IMG/VR virus record: IMGVR_UViG_2872922060_000001
Span: 1 to 64,000 of that record
Strand: one strand, 5' to 3'
Source: a virus
Taxonomy: Duplodnaviria > Caudoviricetes
Length of the DNA: 64,000 bases
The position numbers and the translations under genes were made by a program. Positions 1 through 34,452 of this stretch are shown here, one piece after another (the first letter of the stretch is position 1; every line of letters begins with the position of its first letter). The notes under the pieces were generated by a model. The model did not search any database. It had not been told where the DNA came from and was given only the letters and a program-made list of their open reading frames with translations.

Positions 1-16
1 AGGAAGGAGCCCGCCG

Positions 17-3000
17 ATGAGCCAGTGGAACCTCTCCGTGCGCCTCACCGGACAGGGCTCCGGGCTGACCCGCACCCTGCGCACCCTGGCTCGGGAGGCT
101 AGGGACGCTTCCCGTGACGTCAACGCACTCCGCCGCGACATCGACCGCCTCCGCGCAGAAGCCGGGCAAGGCATCCGCCTGAGCCTGCGACTCGAAGACC
201 CCATGCAGCTTCGCCGCGACGTGGCCGCGGCGGTGCGGTGGGCGTCGATGAACCAGAGCATCACCGTCCGCGTGAACGCGGACACCAGCTCACTGACCGG
301 ACTCACCCAGTCCCTCGGCGGCTTGGGAGGCGGATCCCGCAGTTCCCGCGGCATGCTGCAAGGGCTGCTCGCGCTCGCCCCGTCGGCGATCCCGCTCGTC
401 GCCGGCCTGTCCACAGGCGTCGCGGCCCTTGCCGGGCAGTTCGCTCTCGGAGGCGCCGCCGCGACCGCATTCGGGATCGCCCTGGCTGGGCAGATCGAGC
501 CCCTCACAGAAGCCGCGGATGCGGAGAAGAAATACCAGGAGGCCGTACGGGAGCACGGCCGGTCCTCCGCCGAGGCCATGCAGGCCCAGCTCAAGTACCA
601 GCAGATCCTCGCCAGCCTGCCGCCCGAGGCGCAGCAGGCCGCGATCGCCCTGTCCCAGCTGAAGCAGAACTTCTCCGACTGGTCCGACGACATGGCCGGC
701 TTCACGATGCAGCCGGTCACCAAAGGCATCACCATCCTCGACCAGCTCATCCCCCGGATGACACCGCACGTGGAGTCGTTCTCCCGCGAGCTGGACCGGC
801 TAATGAACGCCGCGGGCGGCGCCATCACCACACCCGGCTTCGACGCGCTGGCCGACAAGGTCGCTCAGCTTACCGACCAGCAGCTCGACGAGTTCACCGA
901 CGACGTCATCCACCTGCTGCGCGTCGTCTCCGAAGGCGACGCCGGCGACGGGGTGCTCGGACAGCTCATGGACTACGTCCGGGAGAACGGGCCCGAAGCG
1001 CGCGCCGCGATCCAGGCGATCGGGCAGGCGGTCATGGTCCTCGCCGAAGGTGCCGCCGAAGCCGGCCCGACCATCCTCACCCTCGTTACCGCGGCGGCCC
1101 GCCTGGTGGCCGCGCTGCCGCCCGAGCTGGTCGGCATCATCATCCAGGTCGCCACCGCCCTGAAGCTCCTCCAGCTGTCCGGGGCCGGGATGGCGGTGCT
1201 GGCGGCCGGGCTGGGCCGGGTCCGCACGCAGATCGCCGCGGTGGGTGCCACGTCCGCCGCCGCGGGCGGAGGCATCGCCGGGCTCCGTGCCGCGTTCCTC
1301 GCCCTGGGCACCGCCGCCAAGGCATCGGTGGTGCTCGCCGGGATCGGCGCCCTGGTCTACGTCCTCATGGAGCTGTCCGAGATCGGGCAGGAAGCCCCGC
1401 CGGACGTCGACAAGCTCACCTCGTCCCTGCGGCAGCTGGGGCAGACCGGCAAGGTCACCGGTGAGGCCGCCCGCGTCTTCGGGGAAGACCTCGGCGACCT
1501 CCACGAAAAGGTTCGGGCGCTGACCGACCCGTCCGCGGTGGACGACATCCAGCAGTGGATCGTCACTCTGGGCGGCCTGGGCGACTGGGACTCCACCCCG
1601 GTCAAGAAAGCCAAGGAAGACCTCGACGCCGTCGACAAGGCCCTCGCGGGCCTGGTGAAGAACGGGCAGGCCGACCTGGCGGCGGAGGCGTTGAAGCGGC
1701 TCACGGCCGAGTACGGGAAGGGCGGCCGGGACACCAGCCAGTTCACCAAGCAGCTCGACGACTACGAGTCCGCGATAGAAGACGCAAGGTTCGAGCAGGA
1801 ACTGGCGGCGGCCAGCATGGGGCTCTTCGGCCGGGCGGCCATGGACACCCAGGCCAAGCTGGAGGCGCAGAAGAAGTCCGCTGATGGGCTGAGGCAGTCG
1901 ATCCTCGCGCTGAACGAAGTCAACCGGGCCGCCGGCTCCGCCATGTCGGCGTTCGAGCAGTCCCTGGACGACGTCACCAGGGCGACCCAGAACCATGCCG
2001 GTGCGCTGAGGATGCGCGACGGTGAGCTGGACCTCGGCTCGCAGAAGGCCCGGGACGCCGAGAAAGTGCTGTCCGAACTGGCCGCGAACACCGATGCCGC
2101 GGCGGCTGCCGCACGCGAGCAGGGCAAGTCATGGGAGCACGTCAATGGGATCTTCACCGAGGGGCGGAGTGCGTTCATCGCAGCCGCCGACAGCATGGGC
2201 CTCACCCGGCAGCAGGCGGAGGCACTCGCCGACTCCTACCTGAAGATCCCCGACGCGAAGTCGATGACGCTGGAGATGCGGACCGAGGACGCGGTCGCCA
2301 GCCTCAACAACGTCATCGCCGCCATCCAGGCGACCCCGGACGCCAAGTCCGTGACCGTGAGCGCACTGACCGACGATGCGGTCATCATGCTCGAGGCGCT
2401 CGGCTACAAGGTCACCGAGCTCAAGGACGGCCGGTTCACGGTCACCGCGGAGACCGGGACCGCCAGCACGAATCTGGACCAGGTCCGGCAGAAGCGTGAC
2501 GGGCTGCAAGACAAAACGATCGTGATCAACTCGTCCGTTGCCAGCACCATCGCCGACCTGCAAGCGGTCCAGCAGAAAGTCGCCTCGACCAACGGCAAGA
2601 CGATCACGATGAAGGCGCCGACCGCGGAGGCCCGTCACCAGCTCGAGCTGCTCGGATTCAAGATCCGTGACACCAAGGGCAAGAACGTCGTCATTACCGT
2701 CCCCACCGGCACGCAGCGCGCCAACGTCGGTGCCCTCGGCTCCGCGATAGCCGGGCTCAGGGACAAGACGGTCACCATCACCACCCGGCACGTCAGCATC
2801 CACGAGACGGTCCGGAAGAACACGCAGACCACCGCCGACCTCATCGCTCAGCAGGCTGAACGGTTCGCCCAGGCGGACGGCGGCACCATCGACTTCTACG
2901 CCCGCGGCGGCATGCGGCGCGAGAACCACGTCGCGCAGATCGCCCCGTCAGGGGCGTGGCGGGTGTGGGCCGAAGACGAGACCGGCGGCGAGGCGTACAT

Positions 3001-4243
3001 TCCCTTCGCCCGGTCCAAGCGGGTCCGGTCCCGCGCCATCGCCGAGGAAACCATCCGCCGCCTGGGCGGCGACCCGGCCACCATCCAGTGGAACGCCAAC
3101 GGCAACATCACCGACTGGCGCTACGACCCCGTCTCCGGGTCCCTCTACTCCGCATCCGACGCCGGGCAGGCCGGCCACAAGACCAAGAAAGTCAAGGTCA
3201 AGGTCAAGGGCAAGTGGCAGACCAAGGAGGTCGAGTACTTCGACATCACCGCGGTCGAGAAGAAGCTGAAGGCCGCAGCGAAGGCCACCACCGTCTGGAA
3301 CAAGAACCTGGAGAAGGTCGCGGACCGGGTCGGTGGAGACGTCGCCGAGGCCCTCGCCTCGATGGGCGAGGACGGCATGAAGCTCGCCGAGAAGATGGCC
3401 AAGGGCTCGACGAAGTACATCAACGAGATGGCTGCCGCCCTGCGGAACCTTCAGAAGACGGCCAAGGCGTCGCTGACGGACTACACGCGGCAGATGGGCG
3501 CGGCGAACAAGGTCAACAGTGAGTTCTCCCGGGACCTAGCGCAGCTCGCGGCGCAGGGATACGGCGACCTGGCGTCGCAGCTCGCGGCGCAGGGCGATGA
3601 AGCTGCGATGCAGCTCGCGGACGCCGCGGCGAGGGACAAGGGCAAGGCGAAGGCCGCGAACGAGCAGGCGAAGCGGGCGAACAGCCAGCTCACCGGCGAG
3701 GAGCAGGCCGACCTCATCCAGATCATCGCCGCGATCAAGAACAAGAACACCGGCATCCACGCGGTCGCGGATGCGACCGGTCTGGGTGAGGACGTCATCA
3801 TCGACGTCGGCAACAAAGCCAAGGTCCAGATCATGCAATTCCTCGGCGGCCGCGCCCAACGGTTCCTCGCCGACCTCTTCAAGGCGAACAAGGGCATGGC
3901 CTACGCGGACGGTGGGATCCGTGCGGGCCTGTACGCCACGCAGGGCGGGATCATCCGGTTCGCGGAGCCGTCCACGCGGGGCGAGGCGTACATCCCGCTC
4001 GGGGAGAACAAGCGGCGCTCGGCGACCGCGGTGCTGTCCAACGTCGCCGGCCGGTTCGGGCTCGGCCTGACCGACGGGCAGGGGCAGCGGGTCGTCATCA
4101 TCCGCGAGCAGGGCCCGCTGGTCGGCGAGTCCCACTTCCACATCGGCGCCCATAGCTCCGACCAGGATCTGGCCCGCGCCGTGGAGGCCCGGCAGGCATA
4201 CCAGCTGAGGCGCCTGGCGCGCGGGGGAGTGGGAGCCCGATGA
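17..4243 (+). CDS. Phage tail tape measure protein
   Basis: 1408 aa Ala-rich helical ORF with hydrophobic stretches. Carries two 'ADGG...AE..T.GEAYIP' motifs typical of actinophage TMPs. Heads the tail gene string; AGGAG RBS upstream. Confidence 0.92.
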   Translation: MSQWNLSVRLTGQGSGLTRTLRTLAREARDASRDVNALRRDIDRLRAEAGQGIRLSLRLEDPMQLRRDVAAAVRWASMNQSITVRVNADTSSLTGLTQSLGGLGGGSRSSRGMLQGLLALAPSAIPLVAGLSTGVAALAGQFALGGAAATAFGIALAGQIEPLTEAADAEKKYQEAVREHGRSSAEAMQAQLKYQQILASLPPEAQQAAIALSQLKQNFSDWSDDMAGFTMQPVTKGITILDQLIPRMTPHVESFSRELDRLMNAAGGAITTPGFDALADKVAQLTDQQLDEFTDDVIHLLRVVSEGDAGDGVLGQLMDYVRENGPEARAAIQAIGQAVMVLAEGAAEAGPTILTLVTAAARLVAALPPELVGIIIQVATALKLLQLSGAGMAVLAAGLGRVRTQIAAVGATSAAAGGGIAGLRAAFLALGTAAKASVVLAGIGALVYVLMELSEIGQEAPPDVDKLTSSLRQLGQTGKVTGEAARVFGEDLGDLHEKVRALTDPSAVDDIQQWIVTLGGLGDWDSTPVKKAKEDLDAVDKALAGLVKNGQADLAAEALKRLTAEYGKGGRDTSQFTKQLDDYESAIEDARFEQELAAASMGLFGRAAMDTQAKLEAQKKSADGLRQSILALNEVNRAAGSAMSAFEQSLDDVTRATQNHAGALRMRDGELDLGSQKARDAEKVLSELAANTDAAAAAAREQGKSWEHVNGIFTEGRSAFIAAADSMGLTRQQAEALADSYLKIPDAKSMTLEMRTEDAVASLNNVIAAIQATPDAKSVTVSALTDDAVIMLEALGYKVTELKDGRFTVTAETGTASTNLDQVRQKRDGLQDKTIVINSSVASTIADLQAVQQKVASTNGKTITMKAPTAEARHQLELLGFKIRDTKGKNVVITVPTGTQRANVGALGSAIAGLRDKTVTITTRHVSIHETVRKNTQTTADLIAQQAERFAQADGGTIDFYARGGMRRENHVAQIAPSGAWRVWAEDETGGEAYIPFARSKRVRSRAIAEETIRRLGGDPATIQWNANGNITDWRYDPVSGSLYSASDAGQAGHKTKKVKVKVKGKWQTKEVEYFDITAVEKKLKAAAKATTVWNKNLEKVADRVGGDVAEALASMGEDGMKLAEKMAKGSTKYINEMAAALRNLQKTAKASLTDYTRQMGAANKVNSEFSRDLAQLAAQGYGDLASQLAAQGDEAAMQLADAAARDKGKAKAANEQAKRANSQLTGEEQADLIQIIAAIKNKNTGIHAVADATGLGEDVIIDVGNKAKVQIMQFLGGRAQRFLADLFKANKGMAYADGGIRAGLYATQGGIIRFAEPSTRGEAYIPLGENKRRSATAVLSNVAGRFGLGLTDGQGQRVVIIREQGPLVGESHFHIGAHSSDQDLARAVEARQAYQLRRLARGGVGAR

Positions 4244-6098: not shown

Positions 6099-7195
6099 CC
6101 AGCCGCTGGCGGTACTGGACCCAGCACGCCCTGACCGGGGTGATGCTGCACCCCGCGCTGCCGCTGACCGACGTCGAGTTCGGCAACGAACTCAACGGCC
6201 CAGGTGAGCTCCGCGGCACCCTCACGCCCCGCTTCGTGAAAGCCAACGCGGCGTCGCTGCTGCCGGGCAAGGCCCTCATCTACGCCGAAGCCGACGGCAT
6301 CCTCCGCTGGGGCGGCCTCATCTGGGACGTCACCGTCGAGGACGGTGAATACCGCCTCGAGGCCGCGTCCTGGTCGTCGTACCTGAACGCCCGCCACGAC
6401 CACCACGGCGAGCTCGCCGGCCGCGGCCCCTACGTGAACACCGACCCATGCAAAATCATCCGCGACATCTGGGCCTACGCGCAGTCCCAGCCCGACGGCA
6501 ACCTCGGCGTCACCGTCGACACGACGACGTCGAGCATGAAGGTCGGCACCCCCGCAGAGCCCTGGCACTCCTACTGGTACGAGACGCCCAACCTCGGCGA
6601 CCAGGTCGACGACCTCATCTCCGAGGACGGCGCCCCCCAGTACACGAACACCTGCCGCTACCTGGCCAACGGCACCGTCGAGAGGCGCCTCAAGCTGGGC
6701 TATCCGCGGCTGGGTGCCCGTCGCACCGACATCAGCTTCCGCACCGGCGTGAACATCGTGACCGCGCCGCCGGTGGAGTACTCGGGCGACGACTACGCCA
6801 ACGTCATCCTCGCCACCGGCTCCGGTGAGGGAACCGCCACCCGCCGGGCTGAGGCGCCGTCCCGGGACGGGGGGCTGCGCATGGAGCATGTTCTGGCCCT
6901 GCCGACCGTCAACGGCAACGACATCCTCGCCAAGCGCGCCGCGGCGGAGCTGAAACGCCGCAAGATCATGGGCCAGGTCGAGACGATCACCGTGCGGGAC
7001 CATCCCAATGCGCCCCTCGGGTCGTGGCAGATCGGCGACGACGTGACCGTCACCGTCAACAACCAATGGGTGTCGTGGTCCGGCTGGGCCCGGGTCGTCG
7101 CCGAGTCCTACCAGCCCGACAAGGCGCCCGACCAGGCCGTCCTCACCCTGAAACGCGCCGACTCCTACCACTACGGACCCCCGGAGGCAGCCTGA
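6095..7195 (+). CDS. Minor tail/baseplate hub protein (Tal/Gp37-like)
   Basis: 'ELNGPG', 'WGGLIW', 'LGYPRLG', 'GSGEG' and 'WQIGDDV' motifs; coupled to both neighbours. Confidence 0.8.
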   Translation: MTSRWRYWTQHALTGVMLHPALPLTDVEFGNELNGPGELRGTLTPRFVKANAASLLPGKALIYAEADGILRWGGLIWDVTVEDGEYRLEAASWSSYLNARHDHHGELAGRGPYVNTDPCKIIRDIWAYAQSQPDGNLGVTVDTTTSSMKVGTPAEPWHSYWYETPNLGDQVDDLISEDGAPQYTNTCRYLANGTVERRLKLGYPRLGARRTDISFRTGVNIVTAPPVEYSGDDYANVILATGSGEGTATRRAEAPSRDGGLRMEHVLALPTVNGNDILAKRAAAELKRRKIMGQVETITVRDHPNAPLGSWQIGDDVTVTVNNQWVSWSGWARVVAESYQPDKAPDQAVLTLKRADSYHYGPPEAA

Positions 7196-9579
7196 TGGCC
7201 CGCAGCATCCCCCAGGAGCTCGCCCGCCTCGCCCGCGAGCTGAAGGAGATCAAGAGAGGGCAGCGGTACGCGCACGGCGGCAGCATCGAGAACAGCGCGG
7301 TCGAGGTCAAGGACGGCACGGGGAGTCTCCGAGCGATCGTCGGCGTGCAGGCCGACGGGACCACCGCCGTGAACATCGTGAACGGGCCGCCGCCGCCTCA
7401 GCCGAGCCCGCCGATCGTCACCCCGGTTCTCGGCGGGGTCGCCGTCTCCTGGGACGGCGCCTTCGCTGATGGTGCCGTGCTGCCGCTGGACTGGCAGCGC
7501 ATCGAGGTACACGCCTCCGCCATCGACGGCTTCACCCCCGTCCCGGACACCCTCCACGGCACCATCGAAACCCCGCAGGGCAGCACGGTCGTCGCCGCCA
7601 CCGACACCCCCGTCTACGTCCGGCTGCTGGCCCGCAGCACCTCCGGTACCGCCTCCACGCCATCCGCTCAGGCTGGGCCCGCCGGCCCGGCGCCGGTCGT
7701 CGCCCAGGAACTCCTCGACGGGATCGTCACCAGCAGCAAAATCGCCGCCGGCGCGGTCACCATCAACGCGCTCACCGAATCCCTCGCCGACACCGCCTCC
7801 CAGCGCTACGTCGATGCCATGGGCGACCCGACCGCGTGGACCGTCCTCACCAAAGCACCAGCCGCGACCTGGACCTTCCTGGACGGCGTCACCGACGCCC
7901 GCACCGGCAGCACCGTCGCCCAGGCCACCGGCTACACCGTCGTCCGTGGCACCCTGCAGATGCCCTACGACCCCGACGTGCTGTACCGGGTCTCCGTCCG
8001 GGCCCGGACTACAGCCGCGTCCGCGTCCGGCACCGACACCCTGTACGCCGGCGTCCTCGGCATCGCCGCGGACGGCGTCACGTACGTCAACCGGACCGGC
8101 GCCAACTCGTACTACACCCAGCTCTACCCGGCCGCCTCGAACACAGCGCAGCCCACCGCCTCGGGCTGGGTCACCTACACCGGCTACCTGAAAGGGCACG
8201 CCGCGTCCGGGACCGTCGGCACGATGCCGGATCCGCGCACCCCGGGCGCCGCCCACACCAACGTCCGCTTCCTCGCCCCGCTGCTGTACCTGAACTTCGG
8301 CTCCGGAACCTCCGGCGACACCGGCACCATGCAGGTCGACGCGTTCACCCTGGAAGCGCTGAAGACCGGCGTCGTGAACAGCAGCAACCTCGTCGCCGGG
8401 TCGGTGACGACGGCCGCGCTCGCCGCGGACTCGGTCACCGCCACACACATCCAGGCGAACGCCGTGACGACAGCTAAGCTCGACGCGGAAGCCGTCACCG
8501 CAGCGAAGATCGCGGGCCTGACCATCACCGGCGACAAGATCGCCGCGAACGCCATCACCGTCGGCAAGCTCGCCGCTGGCGCCGTGGACGCGACCGCGCT
8601 CGCCGCGGACGCCATCACCGGCAAGACCATCACCGGTGGCATCATCAACGGTTCCCTTATCCAGACCGCGACCAGCGGGCCCCGGGTCACCGTCAACGAG
8701 GACAACCTCAACAAGGTCCTCGTCTACGACGCGACCACCCCCACCGCGATCGGGGAACTCTCCGAGCGGGGCCTGCTCCTCCAAGGCAACAACGGCGCAA
8801 TCCTCTGGCTCGACCCGGACAGCGCCTATCCGAACCTGCGGTTCACGAACGCGGCTCAGACGAACAGCGCCTACGTCAACGTGTCCGAGACCTCGCCGGG
8901 CGCCGCCGACCTCGGCCTGACCTCCGGGGTGTTCACCGGATCCGGGTTCTCGGACATGAAGTGGCGCACGTTCATGGGTAACGATTTCGCGGTCATCGAG
9001 CGAATCAGGAACGCTGACGATCAGTACTCGGTGGGTGGGCGTTTCTTCCTCAGCGGCACCTCCGCCTCTCTCGGCTACCGCGACTCCGGCGGCACGTCCC
9101 AGAGCAGCACGCTCTTCGTGCAGGCTGGGCACGCTTTCGTCAGCGGCGGACGGTTCAGCGTCCAGCCCCCCGCATCGTCGTCCAGCGCTGTCCTCGTTAG
9201 CGTGGCCGCCGGGCACACAGGCAACCTGCTGAACCTCACCGTTGACGGTGCCACCAGGATGAACGTCGACAAGGACGGCAACACTGACATCAAGGGCATC
9301 ATGACGGCCGGGAACATCGCGTCCGGCACCATCACCATCACCCCCTCCGCCGCCCACACCCCGACCAGCGCCAGCGTCAACTTCGGCCCGCTGAAGGGCA
9401 CTACTTTCCGCGGCTACGCCACCGCCGTCACCACCGTGCCCGGCGTCCGCACCCCGGTCGGCGCCCAAGGCGTCACCGGCGTTTCCGTCTCCTCGGTTAC
9501 TTCCAGCAGCATGCTGGTCTGGGTCAACCGGGAGAACACGACCGCAACCGTCATCAACTGGATGGTGATCGCATCATGA
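7195..9579 (+). CDS. Tail fibre / receptor-binding protein
   Basis: FN3-like N-terminal region and ~10-aa 'AVTAAKIAA' repeats; last large tail gene. Confidence 0.8.
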   Translation: MARSIPQELARLARELKEIKRGQRYAHGGSIENSAVEVKDGTGSLRAIVGVQADGTTAVNIVNGPPPPQPSPPIVTPVLGGVAVSWDGAFADGAVLPLDWQRIEVHASAIDGFTPVPDTLHGTIETPQGSTVVAATDTPVYVRLLARSTSGTASTPSAQAGPAGPAPVVAQELLDGIVTSSKIAAGAVTINALTESLADTASQRYVDAMGDPTAWTVLTKAPAATWTFLDGVTDARTGSTVAQATGYTVVRGTLQMPYDPDVLYRVSVRARTTAASASGTDTLYAGVLGIAADGVTYVNRTGANSYYTQLYPAASNTAQPTASGWVTYTGYLKGHAASGTVGTMPDPRTPGAAHTNVRFLAPLLYLNFGSGTSGDTGTMQVDAFTLEALKTGVVNSSNLVAGSVTTAALAADSVTATHIQANAVTTAKLDAEAVTAAKIAGLTITGDKIAANAITVGKLAAGAVDATALAADAITGKTITGGIINGSLIQTATSGPRVTVNEDNLNKVLVYDATTPTAIGELSERGLLLQGNNGAILWLDPDSAYPNLRFTNAAQTNSAYVNVSETSPGAADLGLTSGVFTGSGFSDMKWRTFMGNDFAVIERIRNADDQYSVGGRFFLSGTSASLGYRDSGGTSQSSTLFVQAGHAFVSGGRFSVQPPASSSSAVLVSVAAGHTGNLLNLTVDGATRMNVDKDGNTDIKGIMTAGNIASGTITITPSAAHTPTSASVNFGPLKGTTFRGYATAVTTVPGVRTPVGAQGVTGVSVSSVTSSSMLVWVNRENTTATVINWMVIAS

Positions 9580-22217: not shown

Positions 22218-23108
22218 ATGCCGCAGGGCATCGAGGCCCTCGCCAGCATCACGGCGGAGGGCCAGACCTCGCACACCCTTTTCCAGGCTGCACGGCCCGC
22301 GAACACGTTCGGGTACACGCGGGAGCAGCAGATCGAGGCGCTGCACAAGCTCCGGGAGCCCTTCGCCCCCACGGAGATCCGGCACCTGCCGCGTGTGTGG
22401 TGCGGAGCGTGCAAGAACTCCCGCGGTCAGGGTTGCCAGAAGCACCGCATGAGCAAGTGCGGGAAGTGCGGGCAGCGGATGCCGGAGGGCGGGCACATCG
22501 ACCTGGCGTACGTCGGGCATGCGGAGGCGACGAACCGGCTGCTGAACGTGGACCCGTTCTGGGACTGGGAGCCTTTGACGGTCGACGAGCGGGGCCTGCC
22601 GCAGTTGGACGGCTACCGCGGTCTGTGGATCCGGCTGACGGTATGCGGGATGACTCGGCTCGGGTACGGGCATGCCGGCGATAAGACGGGCGGTGACTCC
22701 GTCAAGGAGATCATCGGTGACGCGATCCGCAACGCCGGCATGCGGTTCGGCATGGCGCTGGACCTGTGGACCACTTCTGATCTGGAGATCATCGAGTCCG
22801 GCGGTGACTCTCTCGAGCAGGACGCCGTCGGTGAGCAGGAGGACAGGAAGCGTCAGGAGACGGCCCCGGCGCCGGCCGGTCAGGGTGTCGACCACCTCGC
22901 GCGGCTGCGGTCGCAGGTTTCTGAGTGCTGGGACAACTCGCTGGCTTTGGCGCAGATCGTCTTGGACGCGGAGAAGTGCCGGGTTGCCGACCAGGAGGTG
23001 CCGCTGAAGACGGGTGGGACCGCGACGCTCCGGGACTTGTTGAACGCCCGCATCACCGAACTCGGCCAGGCCGCGCAGGGCGGCAGCACGGAGAGGAGCG
23101 CCGCCTGA
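22218..23108 (+). CDS. Rad52/Sak-family single-strand annealing protein with Cys-rich insertion
   Basis: 'LREPF...EI', 'LAYVGH..ATNRL', 'LTVCG.TR.G.G' and 'K..IGDA.RNAGMRFG.ALDLW'. Confidence 0.8.
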   Translation: MPQGIEALASITAEGQTSHTLFQAARPANTFGYTREQQIEALHKLREPFAPTEIRHLPRVWCGACKNSRGQGCQKHRMSKCGKCGQRMPEGGHIDLAYVGHAEATNRLLNVDPFWDWEPLTVDERGLPQLDGYRGLWIRLTVCGMTRLGYGHAGDKTGGDSVKEIIGDAIRNAGMRFGMALDLWTTSDLEIIESGGDSLEQDAVGEQEDRKRQETAPAPAGQGVDHLARLRSQVSECWDNSLALAQIVLDAEKCRVADQEVPLKTGGTATLRDLLNARITELGQAAQGGSTERSAA

Positions 23109-24394
23109 TGGCCGATCCCACCGAGATCGTCGACCTGTTCCGAGGGCCTGGCGGCTGGTCGGAGGGCCTGCGCATGCTGGGGCTCGCCGACATCGGCCTG
23201 GAGTGGGACTCGGCTGCCGCCCGGACCGCCCACGCTGCCGGCCATCTGGGCATCCAGTGCGATGTGGCCCAGTACCCCACCCGGCCGTTCGCTGGCCGCA
23301 TCAAGGGCAAGATCTCGTCGCCCCCCTGCCAGCCCTGGTCCCGCGCCGGAAAGCGTGCCGGACTCGTCGACCAGGCCCTCGTGCAGCAGGCTGTTCATGA
23401 CCTCGCCCACGGCCGCGACACCCGCACCGAACTGCGGGCCGCCTGCAAGGACGACAAGTCGCTGCTCGCTGCCGAACCTATGCGCTGGATTTGCGACCTA
23501 CGCCCCGAATGGATCTGTATGGAGCAGGTCCCCGACGTGCTGCCGCTGTGGAAGCAGTACACCCTGTACCTCCAGCAGTGGGGTTACAGCACGTGGGCGG
23601 GGATTCTGAACGCCGCTGACTATGGGGTGCCGCAGACCCGCAAGCGCGCCATCCTCATCGCTTCCCGCGTCCGGTCGGTCACCGCCCCGGCGCCGACCCA
23701 CGCGAAGGCGCCCGAGCTCGACCTGTTCGGCGAGTGCCTTCAGCCGTGGGTGTCCATGGCCGAGGCGCTCGGCTGGACGGCGGGGCTCACGGTGAACACC
23801 CGCGGCGAGCGCAAGACCCCGGGGGGCAACGAATTCCCCGCCGACCAGCCGTCATGGGCGCTCACCGAGAAGACCCGCTCATGGGTGCTGCACACCAACC
23901 GTGACCAGCGTGCGGACGGCAGCAGGCAGACCGCCGACCCCTACGCCGGCCCGGCCCCGACCTTCACCGTTAAGTCCGGCGGCCAGTGGGTGCTGCGCAA
24001 CGGAAACCAGCCGAACGCGGCGATACGGACCGTTGACGAGCCGGCGCGAACCATGGCGTTCGGTAACAACTCGGCCCGCATCGAATGGGTCCAGCAGCGC
24101 CCGGCAACCACGGTCTGCGCCACCGACCGCATCTCCCCGCCCGGCCACCGCAACCGCGACGCGGGCGGCGAATCCCAGTTCGCCAGCCCCGACACCGTCC
24201 GCATCACCGTCGCCGAAGCCGCGGTCCTCCAGTCGTTCCGGCCGGACTACCCGTTCCAGGGCACGAAGACGGCGAAATTTACCCAAATTGGGAACGCCGT
24301 TCCGCCCCTTCTTGCGGCAGCAGTGGTCGGGGCGGCGACCGGCTTGGACTGGCAGGCCGCCGTTCAGGGTGAGGAGGAGCGCCGTGTCGCTTGA
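23108..24394 (+). CDS. DNA (cytosine-5) methyltransferase
   Basis: DLFxGPGG, SPPCQ, EQV, 'LNAADYGVPQTRKR', 'EAAVLQSF..DY' and 'QIGNAVPP'. Confidence 0.93.
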   Translation: MADPTEIVDLFRGPGGWSEGLRMLGLADIGLEWDSAAARTAHAAGHLGIQCDVAQYPTRPFAGRIKGKISSPPCQPWSRAGKRAGLVDQALVQQAVHDLAHGRDTRTELRAACKDDKSLLAAEPMRWICDLRPEWICMEQVPDVLPLWKQYTLYLQQWGYSTWAGILNAADYGVPQTRKRAILIASRVRSVTAPAPTHAKAPELDLFGECLQPWVSMAEALGWTAGLTVNTRGERKTPGGNEFPADQPSWALTEKTRSWVLHTNRDQRADGSRQTADPYAGPAPTFTVKSGGQWVLRNGNQPNAAIRTVDEPARTMAFGNNSARIEWVQQRPATTVCATDRISPPGHRNRDAGGESQFASPDTVRITVAEAAVLQSFRPDYPFQGTKTAKFTQIGNAVPPLLAAAVVGAATGLDWQAAVQGEEERRVA

Positions 24395-27330: not shown

Positions 27331-27576
27331 CGAGTAGCTGAGGCGGGAGGTCCCTGGGCCCCTTGGCGGGGGCTCATCCTCTACCGCCTGGCCGCTGGTG
27401 TTGGCGCACCGTGCGCGGCCTTCGTTCCACGGCCCGGAGTTGGCGCTCCGAGCTAAGGCCCGTCTCTTCCGGTTGGCAGCCGGCCGAGTCGAGCGAAGTG
27501 CTTCTTCCACCGAAGCGAACCACCCACCGAAGCGGGGGCCCTTTTGTGCCTCCGCGTTACCGGAAGCAGGTTCATA

Positions 27577-29058
27577 GTGCCTCAGCGCACCCCTTCTTGT
27601 CAGCTTGGCAACCCGGTAGCGCCCGAAACGCGAGGAATCTCCCCCCGCGCGGGCGACACCCAGCGCCCCCAGAACACCCCCGACACGCACACCCCCACCC
27701 CCACTTTCGAACACCCGACCGATTACAGTGACAGCCACGGTCGTGGCGGCAGCCTCCCGGTGATCGCAGCTAGCCAGCAATGGCTGCACGCCACGACCGG
27801 CCGCATCACCACCTGCCCCCACTCCTGGATGACCGCCGTCCACTGGGTCGACCAGCTCGCGACCAAAGGCCACTACACGCCCACCCAGAAGCACGGCCCG
27901 AAGTGGGGACCCACCACGGTCGCCATCGCGCAGGAGATCGCCGCGCTGAAGGAGTGCCGGCCGTCCGTCGACTACCTCGCCCGCAAGCTGAAGGTGTCCG
28001 AGCGGACCGTGAAGTACCACCTGGCGATGCTCCGCGAGACCGGGCTGCTGGTGTACCGCACCAAGGGCACCCGCCTCCGCGGCGAAGGCAACCGGGCGTC
28101 CGTCTTCGAGCGGACCATCCCCGCCGTGTTCGACGAGGACATGGGCATCCGCACGGTCGGGGAGGGTGCAACGCGCCGGCCGGTCGGCGCCGCACCGGAG
28201 TCCCGCACCTTGCTGGGCAAGCTCGCGAAGAAGGCCGCCCGGAAGGTCCGCCGCACCCGTCGCCGCGCCCCTGCTTCGCGCGGGCAGCGTTGCACCCTAA
28301 TGCAGGGGGGTACTACTGGCACTTCTACTGCGGCTGGTACTCACTCTCCCTCTGAGGCAGAGCTCGCAAGCGGGAAAGCCAAGTCCCCCACCCCGAAGTC
28401 GTCCAAGCGCGGCACCCGCACCCTGAACAAGGTCGGTCGCCGTTACCAGCTCGCCCGCCAGCTCATCGCCCAGGTGCCCTGGCTCCGCGGCGCCTCCGTC
28501 GCCCGCATCGCGTGGATCGTCCGCCACGTCGCCGACGCCGGCTGGACCGCCCTCGAAGTCCAGGCCGCCGCCGAACGCCTCGTCTGCGACAAGGAGCCGC
28601 GCCGCCCGTCCGCCGTCCTCGCGTACCGGCTCGCGTCCTGCCACCTGCTGTACACCACCCCCGAGCGGCGCCGGGTCCTGGTGGAGGACTGGCAGGACTC
28701 CCGCCGCGCCCAGCAGACCCGCCACGACGAGCACGCCTTCCAAGACCTCGGCACCGGCCCCCGCAGCGTCGCCGCCCGCCGCGCCGTGGACGAGGCGTTC
28801 GCCGCGATCCAGGCCCGCCTCGCCCCCGCCGTGGAGGAACCCGCCGACCAGGCACCGCTGATGCTCGAGGACCTCACCAAGGACGAGATCGTCGCCCTGC
28901 GCCTGGACGCCATGCGGGACCCGGCGCTGATCCTGTCCGCGCTCGAGCTGCTCGGCGAACGCGACACCCGCCGCCTGTACACCAACCGCCTCGTCGACCA
29001 GACCCTCGCCCTCGAGACCATCCACGCCCGCCGCGACACCCTCGCCCCCGCCTTCTGA
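27577..29058 (+). CDS. Putative plasmid replication initiator (wHTH protein)
   Basis: 'PSVDYLARKLKVSERTVKYHLAMLRETGLL' HTH and 'GNRASVF'; near dciA and parAB; start uncertain. Confidence 0.6.
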   Translation: MPQRTPSCQLGNPVAPETRGISPRAGDTQRPQNTPDTHTPTPTFEHPTDYSDSHGRGGSLPVIAASQQWLHATTGRITTCPHSWMTAVHWVDQLATKGHYTPTQKHGPKWGPTTVAIAQEIAALKECRPSVDYLARKLKVSERTVKYHLAMLRETGLLVYRTKGTRLRGEGNRASVFERTIPAVFDEDMGIRTVGEGATRRPVGAAPESRTLLGKLAKKAARKVRRTRRRAPASRGQRCTLMQGGTTGTSTAAGTHSPSEAELASGKAKSPTPKSSKRGTRTLNKVGRRYQLARQLIAQVPWLRGASVARIAWIVRHVADAGWTALEVQAAAERLVCDKEPRRPSAVLAYRLASCHLLYTTPERRRVLVEDWQDSRRAQQTRHDEHAFQDLGTGPRSVAARRAVDEAFAAIQARLAPAVEEPADQAPLMLEDLTKDEIVALRLDAMRDPALILSALELLGERDTRRLYTNRLVDQTLALETIHARRDTLAPAF

Positions 29059-29401: not shown

Positions 29402-30201
29402 CGGACACCCCGCAACTGTCCGGGAGGGACCTCGCCCGGCAGGCCCTCGCCGCCTACAAGGCCACCGCCCGCACTCAGCCCAGCACCCCCGCCAAGTCGG
29501 TCCGCAAGCGGACCGTCCGCCGCGGCCCCGGCCGCGACCCCGTCACCCTCGCCGACGCCATCACCGCCCTCGGAGCCGACCTGCCCCTCGACGCGGGCAT
29601 CGCCGGCGGCAATCTCCTCGACCAGTGGCCCGCCCTCTGCCCCCAGTACGCCGACCGCGTCCATCCCGTCGCCTACGACGAACAGCGTGGCCGCCTCGAC
29701 CTCCGCCCCGGCAGCCACGCCTACGCCGCCCAGCTCCAACTCCTCGGCGGACAACTCGCCAAACAGATCAACGACAAACTCGGCCGCACCGTCGTCCGCA
29801 GCATCCGCGTCCTGCCCGTCGGCAACGTGCCCCAACACGACGCGTATACCGCGGTATACGCCGACCCCTCCGAGACGACCCAGCCGGAGGCGCCAGTGAA
29901 AACCCGGGAGACCGCCTCCGCCGGCTACCGGGCCGCCCTCGCCGCCGCACTCGCCCACAAACCGCCACGCGAACCGCAGAACCCGTACATCGCCGAAGCG
30001 ATCCGCGCCCAGGACGCCGCCCTCCGCGCCAAGCGCCTGCCCGAGTCCGAAGACCGCGACGCCTACTGGGCACAACGAGACGCCGCGGAGAAAACCGGGC
30101 CCGAACCCGGCAGCATCGACGCGTCCATCGCCGCAGCGATCGCCCGCAAACGGCAAGAGCAGACCGGCAGCGAGCCCCGCCGGCTCTTCGGCGCCGCGTA
30201 G
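29398..30201 (+). CDS. DciA/DUF721-family protein
   Basis: 'DLARQAL', 'RDP..L', 'W...P......G.L......A.A.QL.L....L...IN..LG..VV.SIRV'. Confidence 0.85.
   Translation: MTDTPQLSGRDLARQALAAYKATARTQPSTPAKSVRKRTVRRGPGRDPVTLADAITALGADLPLDAGIAGGNLLDQWPALCPQYADRVHPVAYDEQRGRLDLRPGSHAYAAQLQLLGGQLAKQINDKLGRTVVRSIRVLPVGNVPQHDAYTAVYADPSETTQPEAPVKTRETASAGYRAALAAALAHKPPREPQNPYIAEAIRAQDAALRAKRLPESEDRDAYWAQRDAAEKTGPEPGSIDASIAAAIARKRQEQTGSEPRRLFGAA
29844..29859. promoter_or_regulatory. parS-like palindrome copy 1 (inside dciA)
   Basis: GTATACCGCGGTATAC. Confidence 0.7.
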
Positions 30202-32562: not shown

Positions 32563-32645
32563 GTATACCGCGGTATACGCCGAGGGTCTCACCCCCGCCC
32601 CCCGCCGCCGGGAACCAGCGCCGCTGAAGGTATACCGCGGTATAC
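32563..32645. promoter_or_regulatory. parS-like palindromes copies 2 and 3 upstream of parA
   Basis: GTATACCGCGGTATAC at 32563-78 and 32630-45. Confidence 0.8.
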
Positions 32646-32758
32646 GCCCGCTGCGGTGAACCAGCAGCCCACTCCCCGACCCCGTGTGGTCGATCTGAGA
32701 AGCTATGCCTCGTCCGAGTACCGAGCCCGCCTCGGGAAGCACACGGAAACGGAGCAGC

Positions 32759-33424
32759 ATGCCCTCCTCAGTTCTGGTCATCTCCATCGACCCACAGGGA
32801 TCCACCCTCTGGTGGGCCGACCGCATCGGTGACGACCTCCCCTTCGACTTCGCCACCGCCCACGACGACCCCGACAGCCTCAGCAACCTGATCTCCCTCA
32901 AGGAATCGGGCGCGAAGGTCCACGTCGTCGCCAACCAGAAGGGCGGGGTCGGCAAGACGACGATAGTGATGAACCTCGCCGCTACCGCCCAGGACGTCCT
33001 CAAGGCAGGCAACCAGGTACGGCACGTGTTCATCGACACCCCCGGCTCCATCGAGGACGAACGCCTCCTGACCGCAGCCCTCGAAGTCGCCGACGACGTG
33101 ATCGTGCCCCTCCCCCCGGACCCGCTCGCGTTCGACCCGACCACCCGCACCATCGAGAAGGTCATCAAGCCCCGCGGCCTCCCCTTCAAGGTCATCATCA
33201 ACAACTGGGACGCCCGCGACGGCAAGACCGACATGCTCGACACCCGAGCATTCGTCACAGCGCAGGGCTGGTCCCTCGCAGAGACCGGGATCCGCCGGTA
33301 CCGCATCCACACCCGCGCCCCCGCCGAAGGGAAGCTCGTCACCCACTACCCCGACAGCGGTACCACCCTCAGAGCCCGCCAGGACTTCCTCAAGCTCGCC
33401 CTCGAGCTGGGCTACGGGGGCTGA
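32759..33424 (+). CDS. parA: ParA family ATPase with permuted motif order
   Basis: NQKGGVGKTT, DPQGS, IDTPG and 'ADDVIVP'; alternative start at 32705. Confidence 0.88.
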   Translation: MPSSVLVISIDPQGSTLWWADRIGDDLPFDFATAHDDPDSLSNLISLKESGAKVHVVANQKGGVGKTTIVMNLAATAQDVLKAGNQVRHVFIDTPGSIEDERLLTAALEVADDVIVPLPPDPLAFDPTTRTIEKVIKPRGLPFKVIINNWDARDGKTDMLDTRAFVTAQGWSLAETGIRRYRIHTRAPAEGKLVTHYPDSGTTLRARQDFLKLALELGYGG

Positions 33425-33426
33425 CC

Positions 33427-34452
33427 GTGGCAGGAAAGCGCGTATCCCTGGCCTCCCTCGCCGGGGCCCCTGTCGAGACCGTGCCCGGCGCCTCACGCCC
33501 CGACCTGATCCACGTCCCCCCGAGCACCGTCGCCCCTACCCCCCTCAACCCGCGGCGCGCCTTCGACGAGACCGAGCTGGCCGAACTCGGCGAAGACATG
33601 CGAGGAGGACAGCTCCAGCCGTGCGTGGCCGTGAACAAGGCCGCCTACCTGAAGCTGTACCCCGAGCACGCCGACCAGCTGCCCGCTGGTTGCCGGTACG
33701 TCATGGCCGCCGGCGAACGCCGCTGGCGCGCCGCCGTCAAGGTCGGCCTCGAGCACCTCGACCTGCTGCTGCGGCACGACCTCACCGAATCCCGCGTCCG
33801 GTTCCTCGCCGCGGTGTTGTCGGAGAACGTGCAGCGCGCCAACTTCAATCCCATCGAGGAAGCCGACGGCCTGCGTGCCATGCTCGACCTCCACGACGGC
33901 AACCAAGCCGCGGCAGCGCGAGCCATGGGCAAGTCGAAGCAGTGGTTCAACCAGCGCATCGGCCTGCTGCGGCTGACGGATCAGATGGTGCAGCTGGTCC
34001 TCGAAGGGAAACTGACTGCGTTCCGCGAGATGCGCCGGTACGCGGCTATGCCGCCGGAGGAGCAGTATGCAGCGTGGCAGGCGGACCAAGAGCAGCCGCG
34101 TCCGCCCAAGCAGCCATCCGTCGAGTTGAACCCGGGGAAGATTGCTGGCACCGTTCAGCAGCAGCAGGCGTATACCGCGGTATACCCGCCCGCCGACACA
34201 GCCGCCGCAGCCTCACCGGCACCGGTCCCAAGCCAGCCAGAGGCCACAGCAGCAGCGGAACGCATCCCCGAATCACGGACCGCCATTCAGGCGGACACGC
34301 CAGCGGCCCAGCCATCAGCGAGACGATTCCCCTACGACGATGGCCTGTCCGCGGGACAACTCCTGATCCATAAGATGCCGCCGGCGGAGCTGGAGAAGGT
34401 GACCGACATGCTCATTGCTCACCGGGAGAAGCAGACCGCTGGCGTCAGCTGA
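33427..34452 (+). CDS. parB: ParB family partition protein
   Basis: 'NPRR.F', 'GQLQP', 'GERRWRAA', 'ENVQR..FNPIEEA' and an HTH. Confidence 0.93.
   Translation: MAGKRVSLASLAGAPVETVPGASRPDLIHVPPSTVAPTPLNPRRAFDETELAELGEDMRGGQLQPCVAVNKAAYLKLYPEHADQLPAGCRYVMAAGERRWRAAVKVGLEHLDLLLRHDLTESRVRFLAAVLSENVQRANFNPIEEADGLRAMLDLHDGNQAAAARAMGKSKQWFNQRIGLLRLTDQMVQLVLEGKLTAFREMRRYAAMPPEEQYAAWQADQEQPRPPKQPSVELNPGKIAGTVQQQQAYTAVYPPADTAAAASPAPVPSQPEATAAAERIPESRTAIQADTPAAQPSARRFPYDDGLSAGQLLIHKMPPAELEKVTDMLIAHREKQTAGVS
34170..34185. promoter_or_regulatory. parS-like palindrome copy 4 (inside parB)
   Basis: GTATACCGCGGTATAC. Confidence 0.7.

Follow-up and report, generated by a model that had tools for sequence, protein, structure and literature searches.

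Two overlapping questions, how a partition gene is built and what it does, arise from a parA-parB pair in the window, by which we mean the whole 64,000-nucleotide stretch analysed here (positions 1 to 64,000 of IMG/VR virus record IMGVR_UViG_2872922060_000001, from a Caudoviricetes virus). The parA product can be divided into three modules, A (beta1, Walker A and alpha1), B (beta2 with the A' motif, alpha2, beta3 and alpha3) and C (Walker B to the end of the ParA fold), and along the chain it reads B-A-C, that is A', Walker A, Walker B, whereas canonical ParAs read A-B-C. The two genes and the three modules are placed as follows, with residues (amino acids, aa) numbered from the methionine of the second ATG.

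32705..33424, plus strand: parA open reading frame (ORF), 239 aa, stop included in the coordinates; TGA stop at 33422-33424
32759, plus strand: second ATG, the probable parA start, giving a product of 221 aa
32765..32902, plus strand: module B, aa 3-48, comprising beta2 with the A' motif VLVISIDPQGS, alpha2, beta3 (LPFDF) and alpha3; Asp11 at 32789-32791
32912..33004, plus strand: module A, aa 52-82, comprising beta1, Walker A NQKGGVGKTT and alpha1; signature Lys61 at 32939-32941, followed by Lys66 and Thr67
33020..33421, plus strand: module C, aa 88-221, from Walker B HVFIDTPGS to the end of the ParA fold; Asp93 at 33035-33037
33427..34452, plus strand: parB, 341 aa, with a GTG start at 33427, 2 nucleotides (nt) after the parA stop

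Translation of parA probably begins at ATG 32759 rather than at 32705. The sequence GGAG stands 4 nt 5' of the second ATG, the gene call of a database protein that is 100% identical (P0001, 221 aa) begins at this second methionine, as do the homologues, and the first 18 residues of the 239-aa frame are without conservation among the homologues. In the numbering of that longer frame the motifs are SSVLVISIDPQGS at aa 20-33, then, after 39 aa, VHVVANQKGGVGKTT at aa 72-86 and, after another 20 aa, HVFIDTPGS at aa 107-115; VHVVANQKGGVGKTT is the deviant Walker A, VLVISIDPQGS the A' (switch I) motif and HVFIDTPGS Walker B. A first-pass annotation of this DNA had proposed an A' motif followed by Walker A some 40 aa later and by Walker B some 20 aa after that, in an intact ORF coupled to parB, and the ORF reads exactly so, with the frame open and the parB GTG immediately past the parA stop. 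It had also described the first two beta-alpha units as swapped, and here the rearrangement stands while its extent has to be corrected: as the motifs are laid out, a single beta-alpha unit (A) has exchanged places with two units (B).

Is a protein with its motifs in this order still a ParA? It departs from the succession "Walker A, then A', then Walker B" that describes the ParA/MinD/Soj group; it does carry the deviant Walker A of the form KGGxGK[ST] with its signature lysine (NQKGGVGKTT, aa 59-68), an A' aspartate in the context hhhhxxDPQ (D11) and a Walker B aspartate in the context hhhhD (D93). Linear motif order is a property of the known ParA members and not of the chemistry, and we file the window protein as a topological variant. 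Pfam profiles match it above their cut-offs, AAA_31 at 37 bits (cut-off 27), with profile positions 2-25 aligned to module A, and CbiA at 30.9 bits (cut-off 25.4). Aligned by phmmer against the PDB, it finds the ParA structure 3cwq_A (E 1.4e-10) in stretches that cross one another, query positions 74-93 falling on 4-23, 22-48 on 30-54 and 98-220 on 61-181; the middle stretch of that match, module B, scores -1.5 bits and is not significant alone. Its homology to the ParA/MinD/Soj ATPases is not in doubt.

The order shows more firmly when the modules are searched for one at a time. Hidden Markov models (HMMs) for B, A and C, built from the window's family and applied to 150 cluster representatives plus the window protein, gave the order A-B-C in 92 of these 151 proteins and B-A-C in 4 (the window protein, P0121, P0139 and the frameshifted P0127), with B-C-A in another 4; the rest were A-C (16), B-A fragments (3), C-A (1), C only (23), A-B (4) and B-C (4). 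In mycobacterial ParAs the B-module HMM finds its match after the P-loop, at positions 40-81, with 62-63 bits. The NCBIfam model NF041546 (ParA_partition) follows the canonical protein P0124 end to end (7-205 to 3-198) and the circular permutant P0122 over B and C (5-182 to 27-200), and it covers the window protein from Walker B onward only (77-202 to 67-192). The order B-A-C is a non-circular permutation, one that circular permutation cannot reach.

The order is the rule among the protein's homologues. Both motif positions and module HMMs place 120 of the 120 listed homologues (58-100% identity, 88-98% query coverage) in the order B-A-C, and the full set of 351 proteins, counting the window protein and its identical copy P0001, comprises 128 B-A-C, 164 A-B-C and 7 B-C-A proteins, the remainder being fragments or lacking a module match. 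Source names of the B-A-C proteins span Streptomyces, Kitasatospora, Actinomadura, Actinocorallia, Yinghuangia, Actinoallomurus and Leifsonia. By module HMM the order is also that of the ParA proteins of pZL12, pSAM1, pCQ3, a Kitasatospora plasmid and the contig L004, and the complete records among these are Streptomyces phage/plasmid ZL12 (pZL12.17c, 61.5% identity), S. ambofaciens pSAM1, Streptomyces sp. W9 pCQ3 and the Kitasatospora plasmid. An assembly or sequencing artefact, whether a local misjoin or a duplication-deletion in one record, has a vanishingly small probability against this breadth of sources and identities, against the complete records of pZL12, pSAM1 and pCQ3 and against a parA frame that is open and coupled to parB. 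The first-pass annotation had put forward a topologically rearranged ParA subfamily, and the counts uphold it; independent genomes share B-A-C, which excludes misassembly, and the close homologues are far from uniformly canonical.

Among the plasmid hits, the first 30 rows, at 59-69% identity, each align as one unbroken stretch of 627-654 nt. Plasmid hits at 47% identity or less, from Mycobacterium, Rhodococcus and Nocardia, are canonical A-B-C with a gap across module A (two checked). The 170 of 227 plasmid records covered over at least 80% were rejected as a count of B-A-C, since the Mycobacteriales records at 47% identity or less are A-B-C. A contig scan, in which the generic pattern QKGGVGKT predominated, gave a full-length relative at only 1 of 80 loci, L004.

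In an alignment of 58 B-A-C proteins, with a mean column identity of 63%, the residues S9, D11, Q13 and S15 of A', Q60, K61, G62, G63, G65, K66, T67 and T68 of Walker A (position 64 varies) and D93, P95 and G96 of Walker B are invariant in 58/58. Judged by this conservation and by its spread, the rearrangement is real and heritable and is kept under selection.

The predicted structure suggests how the rearranged chain folds. AlphaFold2, run on the window family alignment, returned a model with a mean predicted local distance difference test score (pLDDT) of 92.2 and a predicted template modelling score (pTM) of 0.90, module B lying at pLDDT 86-95. Its strands (E) and helices (H) run E5-9, H15-26, E30-33 and H38-49 in B, E53-57 and H66-81 in A and E89-93 onward in C, which as modelled is the series of a small ParA with its first unit moved. 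Foldseek's best matches of the model are ParF and ParA structures (E 6e-10 to about 1e-9), and VIA-align lays model residues 52..221 on chain 1..206 of ParF 4dzz_A with Z 18.7, a root-mean-square deviation (rmsd) of 1.9 A and 159 aligned residues, which identifies A+C as a ParA-like fold. In the model, modules A and C are placed as in ParF. The fit leaves model residues 1-51 and some 47 residues of ParF unaligned, module B being skipped on both sides, as is expected of a sequential aligner that meets a swap. The three-dimensional fold and the active site are most likely unaltered by the swap.

We infer a normal three-dimensional placement of module B in the model because of its pLDDT, because the loops flanking A are short (3 residues from alpha3 to beta1 and 7 from alpha1 to the Walker B strand) and because, in a model of the B-C-A protein P0122 (pLDDT 80.5, pTM 0.84, from 7 sequences only), B+C superpose as a single unit on ParF residues 28-206 (173 aligned residues at Z 16.1 and rmsd 2.9 A). 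How might the chain be threaded to allow this? In the kinase-GTPase division of P-loop NTPases the strand that follows alpha1 lies on the far side of the Walker B strand, and the crossovers of a parallel sheet all begin and finish on the same edge. The canonical chain would pass from alpha1 to beta2 and from alpha3 to the Walker B strand, and the B-A-C chain from alpha3 to beta1 and from alpha1 to the Walker B strand; each of the two connections would shift by about one strand while retaining its direction across the sheet, and therefore the helices could keep their usual faces. The pairing of the P-loop strand directly with the Walker B strand in this division is described in the accessible part of a published account.

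ParAs act as dimers, and module B might instead pack differently or be domain-swapped between dimer subunits, altering the properties of the dimer. We consider this very improbable: the pTM of the monomer model and the pLDDT of B give a confident single compact domain, loops of 3 and 7 residues suit intramolecular neighbours, and the B+C body of the B-C-A model fits ParF without being divided.

Relatives that have other chain orders serve here as the nearest points of comparison. Canonical A-B-C near relatives include P0124, P0125 and P0128 (55%, 57% and 53% identity to the window protein, respectively), and the canonical ParAs of the same clade, among them those of M. avium pMAH135 and an M. 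vanbaalenii plasmid, stand at 41-57% identity. In common with the window protein they have VSxDPQ, WWA, LPFDF, YxH before Walker B, NNWDPRDG, RRYK and an LALELGYGG end, and parB lies directly downstream in both; their P-loop unit is N-terminal, unlike that of the window. A third order, B-C-A, with Walker A at the C-terminus, is found full-length in P0122, P0123, P0140, P0185, P0271, P0274 and P0282 and in part in P0156, all of them metagenomic. These proteins belong to the same clade (30-61% identity to the window family) and place the whole A unit after C-terminal LALELGYG, with all motifs invariant in the 7 sequences. Their B and C modules are contiguous, as in canonical ParAs, and some 6-12 residues, the last of them P-R-[VI]-H, link C to A; theirs is a true circular permutation, unlike the arrangement in the window.

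The boundaries of the A unit are the same in all three orders, running from [RK]-[VI]-H-V to D-V-L. Ahead of it stand G-A-R-V-H in pZL12 (B-A-C) and, among B-C-A proteins, P-R-[IV]-H, both reminiscent of the way canonical relatives begin (MAPRVH in P0124, ARVH in P0128), which fits relocation of the whole N-terminal unit. The clade has a further mark in the A' motif, where the first aspartate of D-x-D-P-Q, as found in Soj and 3cwq, is replaced by serine, threonine or cysteine in all three orders (VSTDPQ, ISIDPQ, VGCDPQ; window 32783-32800). From these comparisons the replacement reads as a trait of the clade, unlinked to permutation.

How the two permuted orders arose is a separate matter. B-C-A is the expected product of a tandem duplication followed by trimming; B-A-C is not producible in that way, and a different or longer path is needed. 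Proteins with two A modules are absent among the 351 in hand, which is weak evidence, and a double module was flagged only for B, in P0129 of the 151-protein set. A search for an intermediate, whether long, fused or tandem, brought up P0352 alone, which was rejected as a protein of canonical order with an over-long ORF call. Separately, P0148 and P0150 (about 250 aa) have an N-terminal module C as their only module, with some 130 unrelated residues after it, and may be truncated or fused gene calls. On balance we favour the view that the beta1-P-loop-alpha1 unit is a relocatable cassette with fixed boundaries, occurring in N-terminal, internal and C-terminal positions within one actinobacterial clade of plasmid ParAs, and that the internal position would be the earliest natural case to be described of a ParA/SIMIBI ATPase permuted non-circularly, with an origin separate from the circular one.

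Modules A, B and C were aligned separately for two trees, from which we omitted fragments, proteins without one of the module matches and P0127 with its frameshift. The 120 near-identical B-A-C rows were thinned, every 5th being kept in tree 1 and every 8th in tree 2. In both trees a branch with a Shimodaira-Hasegawa-like approximate likelihood ratio test (SH-aLRT) support of 98 separates the distant canonical ParAs from a clade that holds all three orders, in which the canonical actinobacterial plasmid ParAs named above group with the window protein, and within that clade resolution is poor. In tree 2, 21 of the 22 B-A-C rows cluster with 4 of the 7 B-C-A rows and the A-B-C row P0125 (support 89). 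A tree constrained to hold the 22 B-A-C rows together scored 15.12 log-likelihood units above the free quick search, with a p value of 0.673 in the approximately unbiased test (p-AU); a single origin of B-A-C is compatible with the data, and in neither tree do the starred branches require more than a single origin of any order type. The canonical-order P0125 is nested among permuted proteins in both trees, on unstarred branches with support of 83-92, a placement that may be a long-branch artefact or a clue to the order of events.

What, then, does the locus do? The parB product has the domains ParB_N (Pfam, E 5.5e-10) and HTH_ParB (E 2.3e-09), and scores 77.2 bits with the NCBIfam model TIGR00180 parB_part (cut-off 58.45); a ParB with ParB_N and a helix-turn-helix (HTH) adjoins parA, as in type I ParABS. 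A 16-bp perfect palindrome, GTATACCGCGGTATAC, occurs in 4 exact copies in the window, against 0 expected from 100 shuffles, at the following candidate parS sites (no strand is assigned to them).

29844..29859: candidate parS site 1, GTATACCGCGGTATAC, about 0.8 kb downstream of the ORF 27544..29058
32563..32578: candidate parS site 2, upstream of parA
32630..32645: candidate parS site 3, 113 nt upstream of ATG 32759
34170..34185: candidate parS site 4, inside parB

At 5 of 6 B-A-C loci, repeated palindromes of the form NTWTACCGCGGTAWAN stand both upstream of parA and at a further place, either within parB or downstream of parA. The palindrome itself differs by locus, being GTATACCGCGGTATAC in the window and pSAM1, GTTTACCGCGGTAAAC in pZL12 and pCQ3 and ATTTACCGCGGTAAAT in the Kitasatospora locus L004; the changes between loci preserve its symmetry, and the two half-sites co-vary between plasmids. 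The equivalents of site 4 in pZL12, pSAM1 and pCQ3 are likewise inside parB; in L004, for which no parB coordinates were set, the equivalent is downstream of parA. In the text available of a preprint on SCP1, parS sites defined by chromatin immunoprecipitation sequencing (ChIP-seq) are inverted repeats around both parAB operons, some of them inside parB genes. By their sequence and placement, the 16-bp palindromes are likely to be parS sites. A repeated perfect palindrome was absent from 2 of 2 short A-B-C loci.

The genes around the operon give it a context. The parA product is the sole PF13614 match on its contig, the second of a three-contig genome of 8.1 Mb that has 11 such matches in all, and the window also carries the following features.

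17..4243: tape measure protein (E 8.7e-27)
7024-9579: tail fibre protein
22925-24394: DNA methyltransferase
27544..29058: ORF with weak PHROG matches to replication initiators

The ParA resembles that of the phage-plasmid ZL12, and the contig has the look of a phage-plasmid of the pZL12 type.

We therefore ask how far these observations support ordinary function. The window protein is very probably a genuine ParA/ParF-type partition ATPase in a non-circularly permuted chain, with ordinary ParABS function. Its gene encodes the beta1-P-loop-alpha1 unit, of roughly 35 residues, after alpha3 of the A' segment and ahead of the Walker B strand; like other small ParAs, the protein would form an ATP-bound sandwich dimer on nucleoid DNA, ParB would stimulate ATP hydrolysis once loaded at the 16-bp palindromes acting as parS, and the phage-plasmid prophage would be segregated as a result. 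The word "functional", which the first-pass annotation had attached to the subfamily, is one we would retain as probable because of the invariant catalytic residues, the confident ParA-like model, the translational coupling to parB, the conserved parS-like palindromes and the position of the protein as the only ParA-type match on its contig.

Several points weigh on the other side. For the window protein we infer ATPase activity, dimerisation, parS function and partition itself, from sequence and model. The NCBIfam equivalog cut-off of NF041546, 180 bits, is not reached by the window protein at 72 bits, and canonical P0124 is likewise under it at 89.9 bits. Support for the position of module B in the window model is indirect, coming from the confidence scores (pTM, pLDDT), the secondary structure and the model of the related B-C-A protein, and AlphaFold2 may be biased towards known folds. 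The choice of start codon, 32705 or 32759, is a probable one made by sequence comparison. Finally, the B-A-C locus L086, from a Kitasatospora sp. NBC_00070 plasmid, has no repeated perfect palindrome in 7.6 kb. At this same locus the gene after parA, at the place expected for parB, is annotated as hypothetical only.

The missed equivalog cut-off, together with the serine or threonine that the B-A-C family has at the first A' aspartate of the Soj and 3cwq D-x-D, could be taken to mean that the protein is conserved but catalytically dead or re-purposed, a ParA-like regulator or adaptor whose partition activity was disabled by the permutation. We hold this to be highly improbable. The signature lysine, the P-loop lysine and threonine, the A' aspartate and the Walker B aspartate are invariant; serine, threonine or cysteine at the first A' position is also found in canonical members of the clade (P0124, P0125, P0128 and P0351); and the protein is the sole ParA-type match on its contig, within a parA-parB-parS-like layout that recurs in 5 of 6 loci. 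A probably working partition ATPase with a re-threaded chain remains our reading of the window protein.

Among systems of known structure the closest are ParF of TP228 (4dzz, 4e03, 4e07, 4e09, 5u1g) and the Synechocystis ParA 3cwq, proteins of about 200 residues with the same size, motifs and secondary-structure elements. They are the best structural matches of the window model (Z 16.5-18.7, rmsd 1.9-2.8 A), and 3cwq is also the window protein's best PDB sequence match. ParF is A-B-C and the window protein B-A-C, and a sequential alignment of the two reaches A+C only, 159 of 206 ParF residues. The partners differ too: ParF acts with ParG, a ribbon-helix-helix protein, whereas the window partner is an HTH-ParB with a ParB_N domain. 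Natural reorderings of motifs are known elsewhere among P-loop NTPases, in YlqF/RbgA and YjeQ/RsgA, circularly permuted TRAFAC GTPases (G4-G5-G1-G2-G3) that retain their fold; those are TRAFAC proteins and circular permutants, whereas the window protein belongs to the SIMIBI/ParA side and carries a non-circular segment swap.

A literature search found no permuted order in ParA or SIMIBI proteins, a provisional result whose scope lay outside subscription journals and supplements. The words "permut" and "rearrang" are absent from the main text of a preprint on 156 Streptomyces plasmid ParAs. A 2026 preprint that deals with immunity and ParA-like NTPases has "permut" three times in its accessible portion, each time about FHA domains, and in the portion available of a genome paper on a pZL12-like plasmid, ParA and ParB are identified by Pfam, with 62% identity to pZL12.17c, and their order goes unremarked.

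Few folds are older or better studied than that of the P-loop NTPases, and the position of Walker A ahead of the other motifs has been treated as fixed for ParA, MinD and Soj. A large family kept under selection shows that the P-loop core tolerates a re-threading beyond the reach of simple circular permutation, and its close canonical and circularly permuted kin are natural controls. If the cassette view is true, three natural orders at 50-60% identity would form a ready system for relating chain order to folding and function. The case bears on the origin of new topologies, by duplication and deletion or by segment transposition. It bears on annotation as well, where profile models cover only part of the B-A-C proteins and motif logos can conceal order. 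In the biology of the elements themselves, where the par genes of pZL12 are reportedly needed for stable inheritance, it bears on the partition of Streptomyces phage-plasmids of roughly 90 kb such as pZL12.

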